A DNA stretch of 64,000 bases from an uncultured Clostridium sp. (GTDB lineage: Bacteria > Bacillota > Clostridia > TANB77 > CAG-508), in the NCBI GenBank assembly GCA_947648495.1, contig CANSOA010000002.1, positions 166,250 to 230,249 on the forward strand, given 5' to 3'. The translations under genes were made by a program, and so were the position numbers. Below, piece after piece: positions 48,780 through 49,497 of the stretch. The first letter of the stretch is position 1. Each line of letters opens with the position of its first letter. The notes beneath the pieces were generated by a model. That model worked only from the letters and a program-made list of their open reading frames with translations, was not told where the DNA came from and did not search any database.

Positions 48780-48808
48780 TTGCAAAATTGATTTTATTGT
48801 GTTATAGT
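48780..48808 (+). promoter_or_regulatory. sigma-A-type promoter TTGCAA-17-TATAGT of small-peptide cassette 1
   Basis: Near-consensus -35 and -10 boxes. An operator-like ATTGTTATCCGCTCA lies at 48816-48830 over the predicted +1. Confidence 0.5.
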
Positions 48809-48895
48809 AATTACATTGTTATCCGCTCAGTTCGAGCAAGATTTTCCTAAATTTTTTATTCATAGCTCACGCTTCATTGAAAGGAGGTAATGCAT

Positions 48896-49039
48896 ATGAA
48901 TGATAATTATTTTATTCCAAAGATAAAGCCTATTCACAAATTAGGTAAAAAGCTTAAAAATTGGATACATACTTTTATCAAATTTCTTGTTCTTTTTCTA
49001 ACTATCTTAGAAAAGATTAAGAACATTTTCGATTTTTAA
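48896..49039 (+). CDS. 47-aa peptide MNDNYFIPKIKPIHKLGKKLKNWIHTFIKFLVLFLTILEKIKNIFDF (cassette 1)
   Basis: AAAGGAGGT ribosome-binding site 8 nt upstream. A basic N-half and hydrophobic C-half, followed by its own terminator. Not in the ORF track. Confidence 0.5.
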   Translation: MNDNYFIPKIKPIHKLGKKLKNWIHTFIKFLVLFLTILEKIKNIFDF

Positions 49040-49043
49040 GTGA

Positions 49044-49078
49044 AAAGTAGGTAGTCTCCAGCTACCTACTTTTTTAGT
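49044..49078 (+). terminator. intrinsic terminator of cassette 1
   Basis: AGTAGGTAG-n7-CTACCTACT followed by TTTTTT. Confidence 0.7.
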
Positions 49079-49200
49079 TTTTTGAATGATAATTATCTTT
49101 TTATATAATATCCATATATATCATACTTAAAAATATTATACATCAAATTTTCATTTTGTCAATCTTTTTCGGTAGTAAATCATATTAATTTCATTTTGTA

Positions 49201-49229
49201 TTGCAAAATTTATTTTCCTGTGTTATAGT
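49201..49229 (+). promoter_or_regulatory. sigma-A-type promoter TTGCAA-17-TATAGT of small-peptide cassette 2
   Basis: A duplicate of the cassette 1 promoter, with the same operator-like sequence at 49236-49250. Confidence 0.5.
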
Positions 49230-49315
49230 AATTACATTGTTATCCGCTCAGTTCGAGCAAGATTTTCCTAAAATTTTTATTCATAGATTCCCTTCATTGA
49301 AAGGAGGTGATACAT

Positions 49316-49459
49316 ATGAATTCCAATTACCCTATACTTAAGATAAAACTTACTTCTAAGTTACGTGAGAAACTTAAAAATTGGGTACATACTTTACTTA
49401 AATATCTTATTCTTTTTCTAACGATTTTAGAAAAAATTAAGAACATCTTTGATTTTTAA
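49316..49459 (+). CDS. 47-aa peptide MNSNYPILKIKLTSKLREKLKNWVHTLLKYLILFLTILEKIKNIFDF (cassette 2)
   Basis: A paralog of the cassette 1 peptide; the C-terminal 17 aa are identical. AAAGGAGGTG ribosome-binding site. Confidence 0.5.
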   Translation: MNSNYPILKIKLTSKLREKLKNWVHTLLKYLILFLTILEKIKNIFDF

Positions 49460-49463
49460 GTGA

Positions 49464-49497
49464 AAAGTAGGTAGTTACCGCTACCTACTTTTTTTTG
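49464..49497 (+). terminator. intrinsic terminator of cassette 2
   Basis: AGTAGGTAG-n7-CTACCTACT followed by a T8 run. Confidence 0.7.

Follow-up and report, generated by a model that had tools for sequence, protein, structure and literature searches.

A 64,000-nucleotide stretch from an uncultured Clostridium sp. (contig CANSOA010000002.1, here called the window) carries, within a minus-strand pilus-like operon and antisense to it, a unit of about 420 bp that is present in two tandem copies. We consider it probable that each unit is a type I toxin–antitoxin module resembling par of the Enterococcus faecalis plasmid pAD1, that it encodes a peptide of a new orphan family, and that the two copies are largely orthogonal to each other. 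This reading rests on the anatomy of the sequence, on covariation between distant sites, on purifying selection acting on the peptide and on the pattern of presence and absence among relatives; from these we infer transcript ends, repression by a small RNA (sRNA), toxicity and a membrane target. The antisense-RNA architecture is held with more confidence than the toxicity of the peptide.

Two tandem units with predicted convergent transcripts

A preliminary description of this DNA had reported a ~420-bp head-to-tail duplication lying antisense to its surroundings, each copy with a TTGCAA-17-TATAGT promoter, a ribosome-binding site, a 47-codon open reading frame (ORF) and an intrinsic terminator. 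All of these parts are present in both copies: the period is 420-426 bp, every surrounding gene lies on the minus strand, the promoters have in addition a TG extension, and the two peptide sequences that had been given match the ORFs exactly. The end that had been set at 49497 was premature, however, as the repeated unit runs to ~49606 and the omitted part holds a minus-strand consensus promoter. The features of the two units are as follows.

48775-49180: unit 1, with plus-strand promoter, Shine–Dalgarno (SD) sequence, 47-codon ORF and terminator, and a minus-strand sRNA promoter
49196-49606: unit 2, the same set of parts as unit 1, head-to-tail
48780..48808, plus strand: toxin promoter 1, TTGCAA, 17 nt, TG-extended TATAGT
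49201..49229, plus strand: toxin promoter 2, TTGCAA, 17 nt, TG-extended TATAGT
48815..48895, plus strand: predicted 5′ untranslated region (UTR) of toxin mRNA 1, start inferred, with a small 5′ hairpin (48825-48837) and a larger hairpin (48856-48903)
49236..49315, plus strand: predicted 5′ UTR of toxin mRNA 2, with a hairpin sequestering SD and AUG (49279-49321)
48880-48887 and 49300-49307, plus strand: SD AAAGGAGG, 8 nt 5′ of the ATG
48896..49039, plus strand: ORF 1, 47 amino acids (aa), MNDNYFIPKIKPIHKLGKKLKNWIHTFIKFLVLFLTILEKIKNIFDF, from translation and the ratio of non-synonymous to synonymous substitution rates (dN/dS)
49316..49459, plus strand: ORF 2, 47 aa, MNSNYPILKIKLTSKLREKLKNWVHTLLKYLILFLTILEKIKNIFDF, from translation and dN/dS
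48897..48913, plus strand: putative target site on mRNA 1 (direct repeat DR1), UGAAUGAUAAUUAUUUU, start codon and codons 2-6
49317..49333, plus strand: putative target site on mRNA 2, UGAAUUCCAAUUACCCU, start-codon region of ORF 2
49042..49074, both strands: bidirectional terminator 1, T tail 8/10 in the toxin direction and 6/10 (TTTTCACTTA) in the sRNA and operon direction
49462..49493, both strands: bidirectional terminator 2, shared by toxin and sRNA transcripts
49036..49128, minus strand: predicted antitoxin sRNA 1, ~93 nt, ends inferred
49456..49554, minus strand: predicted antitoxin sRNA 2, ~99 nt, ends inferred
49083..49099, minus strand: putative pairing stretch of sRNA 1 (DR1′; plus-strand TGAATGATAATTATCTT), second copy of the repeat
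49502..49518, minus strand: putative pairing stretch of sRNA 2 (plus-strand TGAATTCCAATTATCCT), direct-repeat copy
49135..49162, minus strand: sRNA promoter 1, TTGACA, 16 nt, TATAAT (12/12)
49561..49588, minus strand: sRNA promoter 2, TTGACA, 16 nt, TATAAT (12/12)

The minus-strand promoters stand out against the background of the window. Exact TTGACA-N16-18-TATAAT sites occur four times where 0.16 are expected (~25-fold), a count that none of 100 shuffles reaches, and two of the four are the sRNA promoters. Both of their hexamers are invariant in all eight cassettes that could be aligned (from six genomes, including both copies in the window), while the spacer varies at 5 of its 16 positions. 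The sRNA lengths given above assume a start 7 nt past the -10 hexamer, and in the consensus fold of the sRNAs an AU-rich hairpin at the 5′ end is separated by ~30 unpaired nt from the hairpin of the terminator. The terminators themselves are hairpins of 12-14 bp followed by a T run (two found, 0.4 expected in shuffles), and every cassette has more T in the tail that serves the toxin transcript (8-9 of 10) than in the one that serves the operon direction (6-7 of 10). Convergent promoters facing a single bidirectional terminator are present in 8/8 cassettes. The earlier description took operon read-through as the antisense partner and overlooked that each cassette has a convergent promoter of its own and a shared bidirectional terminator.

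Two further observations concern the sRNA promoter region. Immediately upstream of the sRNA -35 hexamer lies an octamer, TTTCGGTA (49167-49174 and 49593-49600; TACCGAAA on the minus strand), that is unchanged across all eight cassettes and survives in a decayed remnant (locus L007, see below); it may serve as an UP element or bind a regulator. Facing the sRNA promoter there is also a conserved plus-strand promoter-like site (TTGAAT-16-TATAAT, 10/12, at 49082-49109 and 49501-49528), a promoter function of which is inseparable from other constraints because the same bases form the sRNA pairing stretch and a hairpin arm.

On the mRNA side, the -35 hexamer is likewise invariant in the eight cassettes, and the leaders are predicted to hide the translation start. 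In the consensus fold of the eight leaders, UUCAUAUAUCAC..CUUC pairs with GGAGGUGAUA..AUAUGAA, burying both SD and start codon, and the small 5′ hairpin (GCUC/GAGC) is invariant. Both window mRNAs adopt the SD- and AUG-burying fold in single-sequence predictions as well, with UUCAUA...GCUUC in the larger hairpin of mRNA 1 pairing with SD and AUG; the folding z-scores of the whole transcripts are -5.1 (mRNA 1) and -3.8 (mRNA 2). Within the mRNAs, CTTAAAAAT (codons L-K-N) is complementary to ATTTTTAAG at the stop codon (48953-48961 with 49032-49040; 49372-49381 with 49452-49461). The segments bearing these arms are kept in 8/8 cassettes, and in predicted folds the arms pair and enclose the region for the hydrophobic half of the peptide. 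Both leaders also begin (48815-48829, 49236-49250) with ATTGTTATCCGCTCA, which matches 15 consecutive bases of the E. coli lac operator. The match is most likely a coincidence, since it is lost in relatives (ATTCTTATCCGCTCAA, ATTGTTTTCTGCTCA), yet it could trip screens for vector contamination.

The starts of the repeated segments, as located by a repeat finder, are spaced 419-426 bp apart. Aligned with one another (48770-49195 to 49190-49620), the two copies have a mean column identity of 91%, and they are 85% identical over the trimmed alignment of the eight cassettes. Their similarity is a mosaic. In promoter and leader they are each other's closest relatives (89%), and they have in common a block of 59 identical nucleotides at the sRNA promoter. 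At 78% identity, the ORFs are one of the joint most divergent ORF pairs of the set, ORF 2 being 91% identical to that of cassette L004a. Such a pattern points either to gene conversion that affected the non-coding parts or to ORFs that arose separately. There are no further copies of the unit within the window, and plasmid and phage collections, searched by blastn with the 851-bp unit, returned no match. Rfam models at gathering thresholds found nothing in the whole window, and in the cassette region nothing rose above noise, the best hit being STnc290 (25 bits against a gathering score of 60), which covers the terminator only.

Predicted pairing between sRNA and mRNA

The unpaired stretch of each sRNA is the reverse complement of a 17-nt direct repeat, which enables each sRNA to base-pair with its own mRNA over the AUG and codons 2-6. 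In unit 1, TGAATGATAATTAT stands at the start of ORF 1 (48897) and again right after terminator 1 (49083); in unit 2, TGAATTCCAATTA stands at the start of ORF 2 (49317) and again after terminator 2 (49502). Codons 2-4 vary among cassettes (ND, NS, HS, KD, KQ, KC), and in every case the downstream repeat changes along with them.

Pairs were counted over the 17-bp helix formed by mRNA site and sRNA stretch in the eight cassettes. This intermolecular helix has 95.6% of its cells paired, as against 82.5% in shuffles, with none of 500 shuffles reaching the observed value, and sliding the register by 1-3 columns reduces the paired fraction to 30-53%. Compensatory changes, on both sides of the helix, affect six pairs and 18 cells. 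The mean predicted duplex energy is -20.7 kcal/mol for cognate and -11.2 kcal/mol for non-cognate combinations. For the two units of the window, mRNA 1 is predicted to form a duplex of -18.2 kcal/mol with sRNA 1 and of -10.7 kcal/mol with sRNA 2, and mRNA 2 one of -20.3 kcal/mol with sRNA 2 and of -3.6 kcal/mol with sRNA 1. A 3-nt patch, which reads GAU in one copy and UCC in the other, distinguishes the copies in both partners, and it is through this patch that the two would be largely orthogonal.

A second direct repeat, TTCATATATCA, present in the leader and in the 5′ end of the sRNA, was considered as a counterpart of the DRb repeat of par and rejected: it is degenerate in both window copies, its order is not colinear with that of DR1, and it shows no covariation. 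It is better explained as the anti-SD arm in the leader and as an arm of the 5′ hairpin in the sRNA.

The peptide and known type I systems

The 47-codon frame and its length are kept in 8/8 aligned cassettes, that of locus L006 lacking the ATG. In the C-terminal half (codons 23-47), dN/dS is 0.03-0.35 in most pairwise comparisons and substitutions are mostly synonymous, while the N-terminal half is less constrained (dN/dS up to ~1 or more), the N-terminus being the most variable part. On this evidence the ORFs are real genes under purifying selection rather than a nucleotide repeat alone. The preliminary description's account of a basic N-terminal and a hydrophobic C-terminal half also stands. 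The net charge of +6 is concentrated in residues 9-21, after which follows W-x-H-T-x-x-K-x-L-x-L-x-L-T-I-L-E-K-I-K-N-I-F-D-F, and the most hydrophobic 15-mer (residues 24-38) has a mean Kyte–Doolittle (KD) value of 1.9-2.2. AlphaFold2 predicts a single helix over residues 10-46, with pLDDT ~90 at residues 21-40. Insertion of the peptide into a membrane is plausible but not certain.

Pfam, NCBIfam and PHROGs hold no family for either peptide, even at E<=10 for Fst-type models; a match to DUF3930 (E=0.032) did not reach the threshold and was set aside. From 5.8 billion proteins, a word-indexed search retrieved only three, all of 47 aa, namely ORF 1 of the window and two relatives, and a profile search of 1.84 billion representative proteins found nothing beyond the family's own cluster. 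Scans of IMG/VR and of JGI metagenomes with peptide patterns found no relatives. Judged by these searches, the peptide is a new and rare orphan family, with ~10 cassettes in total, all of them in uncultured Clostridium or Eubacteriales genomes.

Taken as a type I module, each unit would work as follows. Plus-strand transcription would yield an mRNA of ~265 nt for the strongly basic, single-helix peptide, presumed to be a membrane-active toxin, and the leader hairpin that buries SD and AUG would keep spontaneous translation low. The minus-strand consensus promoter would yield an sRNA of ~93-99 nt, convergent into the same bidirectional terminator. Its central stretch would anneal to the mRNA of the same unit over the AUG and codons 2-6, the fully complementary terminator hairpins providing a second contact, and pairing would block ribosome binding, target the duplex for cleavage, or both. 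As the sRNA runs in the direction of the operon, where the terminator tail is weaker, read-through from the sRNA promoters or from the operon may also be the only visible route to the downstream pilin-like genes.

This arrangement matches that of par. In pAD1 and relatives, two promoters converge on one intrinsic terminator that works in both directions; its stem-loops are complementary, and contact between the RNAs begins there. Sequestration of the translation initiation site is achieved by direct repeats transcribed in opposite senses, and a 5′ stem-loop hides the SD until the antitoxin binds (PMC7472228). All four of these features of par (Fst/RNA I-RNA II) are present here, and the mRNAs are of similar size (~230-265 nt across par and the present module). 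A position between operons is also found for chromosomal par, as with par_EF0409 between two mannitol PTS operons (PMC7472228; bioRxiv 10.1101/2022.02.04.479212). The peptide nevertheless does not belong to the Fst/Ldr family, being 47 rather than 33 residues long, lacking PxxxG and matching no Fst-type model. The predicted sRNA, at ~95 nt with an extra 5′ hairpin, is longer than the par antitoxin RNA (~40-65 nt), and one direct repeat is well supported here where par has two. The terminator loops, compared by eye, differ in almost every cassette and have no YUNR motif in common; some par homologues lack a U-turn motif (PMC7472228). Of the upstream helix that protects the 5′ end in par, the small invariant 5′ hairpin of the leaders is at most a candidate counterpart.

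Other type I systems are similar in single respects. The zorO-orzO/zorP-orzP loci of E. coli O157:H7 are also in tandem, and a 3-nt patch within ~18 nt of pairing differs between them (GAA/ACG there, GAU/UCC here); mutagenesis of this V1 patch showed that it sets specificity (PMC3919570). In those loci, however, which belong to a proteobacterium, the toxin and sRNA genes diverge and do not share a terminator, pairing is in the 5′ UTR, and the peptides bear no relation to the present ones. In Clostridioides difficile, type I toxins of 34-59 aa (CD2517.1-RCd8, CD2907.1-RCd9, CD0956.2-RCd10 and prophage relatives) are encoded by convergent, overlapping genes (PMC6563280). These modules have in common with the present one the class Clostridia, the convergence of toxin and antitoxin and small peptides without homology to other toxin families, but they adjoin CRISPR arrays or lie in prophages, unlike the operon setting here (PMC6563280). 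The profile search of 1.84 billion representatives detected no sequence relation to their toxins. In bsrG/SR4 and txpA/RatA of Bacillus subtilis, the genes are convergent and overlap at their 3′ ends, forming one long 3′ complementarity, and the effect on the SD is indirect. Here, by contrast, a separate repeat targets the start codon directly. The sRNA of bsrG/SR4 is described as affecting both mRNA decay and translation (PMC3834814).

Several points weigh against reading the units as toxin–antitoxin modules. The promoters, the ends of the transcripts and repression by the sRNA are all predicted. For the SD hairpin, which lacks compensatory pairs, the support is conservation and energy. There is no clear second direct repeat and no consistent U-turn loop motif. 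The eight cassettes are mutually related, and the covariation between repeat copies could in part reflect gene conversion at the DNA level; still, a 17-nt repeat aimed at the start codon and held through at least five sequence states needs selection. The hydrophobic stretch of the peptide is short and is interrupted by Lys29, and its best 19-mer (mean KD 1.35-1.54) is borderline for a membrane span. The polarity of the peptide, with basic N-terminal and hydrophobic C-terminal halves, is the reverse of that of Fst, which has an N-terminal membrane helix and a charged tail, and is opposite to that of the C. difficile toxins, in which the N-terminus is hydrophobic and the C-terminus lysine-rich. 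Finally, the module lies in the chromosome and, in all cases, at a single junction of a single operon, a location that could point to an operon-specific role rather than to an addiction module.

The operon junction and alternative readings

The window is chromosomal, with genes for a SpoIVB peptidase, YqfD, a ClpB-type ATPase and a Mur ligase. The minus-strand operon that contains the cassettes (42139-57245) encodes at least six paralogues in which MENASKALI, or a motif like it, opens the protein and precedes a hydrophobic segment, together with a protein of 690 aa, taken from its sequence to be a polytopic membrane protein, and one of 817 aa. Almost none of its products reaches the Pfam or NCBIfam threshold, the matches obtained being weak ones to a CpaB-like model (E=4e-4) and to AAA_31 (TadZ-like; E=1e-3). 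As a whole it resembles a Tad-like pilus system, though one that has diverged very far and lacks nearly all annotation, and the label 'pilus-like' given to it in the preliminary description is reasonable, if weakly supported by these matches. Two operon genes flank the cassettes.

49603..50400, minus strand: upstream operon gene of 265 aa, followed in relatives without a cassette by a pilin-like gene after 13-19 bp
48195..48752, minus strand: first downstream pilin-like gene (MENASKALI...), start codon 28 nt from the toxin -35 hexamer

A promoter scan found no minus-strand promoter-like site between 48753 and 49040. The downstream pilin-like gene has no room for a promoter of its own, and its transcripts must cross cassette 1 in antisense; a fraction of the transcription that starts at the sRNA promoters or in the operon may well continue past the terminator and so provide for the pilin genes.

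When one genome per species was scanned, three further loci came to light; the genomes concerned bear the labels uncultured Clostridium sp. and Eubacteriales bacterium. Locus L004 carries a second tandem copy (L004a and L004b, both among the eight aligned cassettes), and a ninth cassette (L010) is, by eye, identical to L004b over the part retained on its contig. The 265-aa gene adjoining the cassette has 211 homologues, and the contigs of some of these were sampled for the content of the junction.

L001, L003, L004 (two copies), L005, L006 and L010: cassette present, at the same site
L008 (265-aa homologue of 41% identity): gap of 17 bp, no cassette
L009 (37% identity): gap of 13 bp, no cassette
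L011 (53% identity): gap of 19 bp, no cassette
L012 (49% identity): gap of 16 bp, no cassette

Since some versions of the operon lack it, the cassette is an insertion with a patchy distribution. Two loci are in decay. In L006, the start codon is replaced by ATA, and the only differences from L003 are non-synonymous. In L007, the promoter, the leader with its SD and most of the ORF are lost, while the terminator, the direct repeat and the sRNA gene (-35 TCGACA) are kept. As indirect hints, both fit the pattern expected of a toxin and its antitoxin. Three metagenome contigs from other samples (L002, end 2689; L010, end 3714; L014, end 2330) stop inside or beside the cassette; because assemblers break at tandem repeats, tandem copies may be commoner than intact loci show.

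At the same junction, locus L013 has two near-identical tandem copies of a different module (3331-4525, with the operon on the plus strand; period ~480 bp). It encodes a hydrophobic peptide of 27 aa, MIKLFIKGAILLLQTILFIIDFIEEFQ, is equipped with a 12/12 promoter in convergent orientation (TTGACA-17-TATAAT) and with a terminator predicted on both strands, and repeats the start of its ORF, ATGATAAAACTT, after the terminator, with a predicted duplex energy of -18.2 kcal/mol. Homology between the 27-aa and the 47-aa peptides was considered but is not supported (hhalign probability 0.9%). The L013 modules are flanked by GC-rich palindromic elements in an otherwise AT-rich spacer (~3340-3570, 3950-4050 and 4470-4500; for example GGGCGATTAAAATCGCCCCTAC, GGGGCGACAACCTGTCGCCC and GGTCGATGAGGGCATCGACCCCTAC), which resemble REP or MITE elements.

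Elsewhere in the operon, a secretion-ATPase-like gene (52524-54637, minus strand) is split over three frames, each shifted by +1. Its junctions (plus-strand TCCGG at 53491 and 53289) both read C-CGG-A. Skipping the C at the first yields a valid Walker A motif (GEQGCGKTT), and at the second SVNIIGEVATDPVASWMIQ, which is the exact single-frame sequence of the more distant L009 homologue. Across the window, L001, L004, L005, L007 and L008, four divergent genomes keep the full arrangement of three frames, and L007 and L008 too have the second junction. Inspected by eye, the central segment seems to have changed mostly by substitutions that are synonymous in its own frame, and CGG is the rarest Arg codon in the window (3/457). 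The gene is a candidate for a pair of programmed +1 frameshifts at a hungry codon.

The position of the module also bears on the alternatives to a toxin–antitoxin role. One of them, which we regard as unlikely, is that the unit is a regulatory device internal to the operon: the peptide would be a small membrane protein that does no harm and might act together with the pilus machinery, the minus-strand promoter would mainly drive the pilin-like genes, the hairpin would act as a leaky attenuator, and pilin transcription crossing the cassette would switch the peptide off, as in an excludon. Such a device would account for the occurrence of the module at the same junction in every genome having it, for the 28 nt between the pilin-like start and the toxin -35 with no minus-strand promoter-like site between 48753 and 49040, for the terminator tail that is weaker in the operon direction in all cassettes, and for the unrelated module of the same design at that junction in L013. 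It has less to say about the cassette-free operons, which are common and, with a gap of 13-19 bp, need no internal promoter, and a 17-nt start-codon repeat with copy-specific covariation would be superfluous for a long read-through antisense RNA. The loss of the ORF with retention of the sRNA in L007, and the loss of the ATG in L006, also better fit a dispensable, harmful product. As in the excludons of Listeria and in antisense switches internal to operons, a transcript running in the operon direction would be antisense to one gene and also the mRNA of its neighbours; in the present case, though, the antisense partner ends at a terminator of its own and carries a dedicated seed, and the read-through is a predicted one. 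The related suggestion of a device splitting the operon is right in that the insertion does interrupt the operon (the gap is 13-19 bp where there is no cassette), and such splitting may be a secondary consequence. That the cassettes fire into the upstream pilin gene, as had been proposed, is not accurate, for their strong terminators meet plus-strand transcripts first.

The operon-device and toxin–antitoxin readings are not mutually exclusive. A combination that we entertain with low confidence is that the unit is a domesticated toxin–antitoxin cassette, now part of the control of the pilus-like operon and not merely a selfish insertion.

That the ORFs encode secreted bacteriocin-like or quorum-sensing peptides is very improbable. 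Their small size, the cationic amphipathic helix and the tandem paralogues would suit this role, which the preliminary description had put forward, but the peptides have no double-glycine or other leader and no cleavage motif, and their N-terminus is the most variable part. The genes adjoining the cassettes are those of the pilus-like operon, with no transporter, immunity, modification or sensor genes among them, and there is no Pfam, NCBIfam or PHROGs match; a convergent sRNA and a buried SD are moreover hallmarks of tight repression, not of high-level secretion. Of the roles first offered, 'type-I-toxin-like' fits best, although the separate gene for an antitoxin sRNA had been missed.

The least probable alternative is that the unit has no function, being a mere repeat or a miniature mobile element in which ORF and signals arose by chance in AT-rich DNA (30% G+C in the window, where 16 promoter-like sites matching at >=9/12 are found and 8.7 expected); the absence of other copies in the window and in plasmid and phage collections speaks against it, as do promoter hexamers that are invariant while spacers vary, and the covariation of distant sites, the purifying selection on the peptide and the ~25-fold excess of 12/12 promoters refute it.

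As type I toxin–antitoxin modules, the units would add an orphan toxin family with an unusual, reversed layout of basic N-terminal and hydrophobic C-terminal halves, and would extend the par blueprint to toxins unrelated to Fst. They also provide a natural covariation series for an intermolecular helix, with two sets of tandem paralogues split by a small recognition patch. If the cassette has been domesticated, the 'antitoxin' promoter and the leaky terminator would drive and meter the pilin genes, and the peptide would be made only when transcription stops, so that piliation would be coupled to growth arrest or retention of the operon enforced; repeated capture at one junction of unrelated modules that have one design in common (family A in seven relatives, family B in L013), each with a tendency to tandem copies, would then reflect selection for function. 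With the module inside an operon and its antitoxin promoter facing structural genes, co-option for the control of an operon becomes testable.

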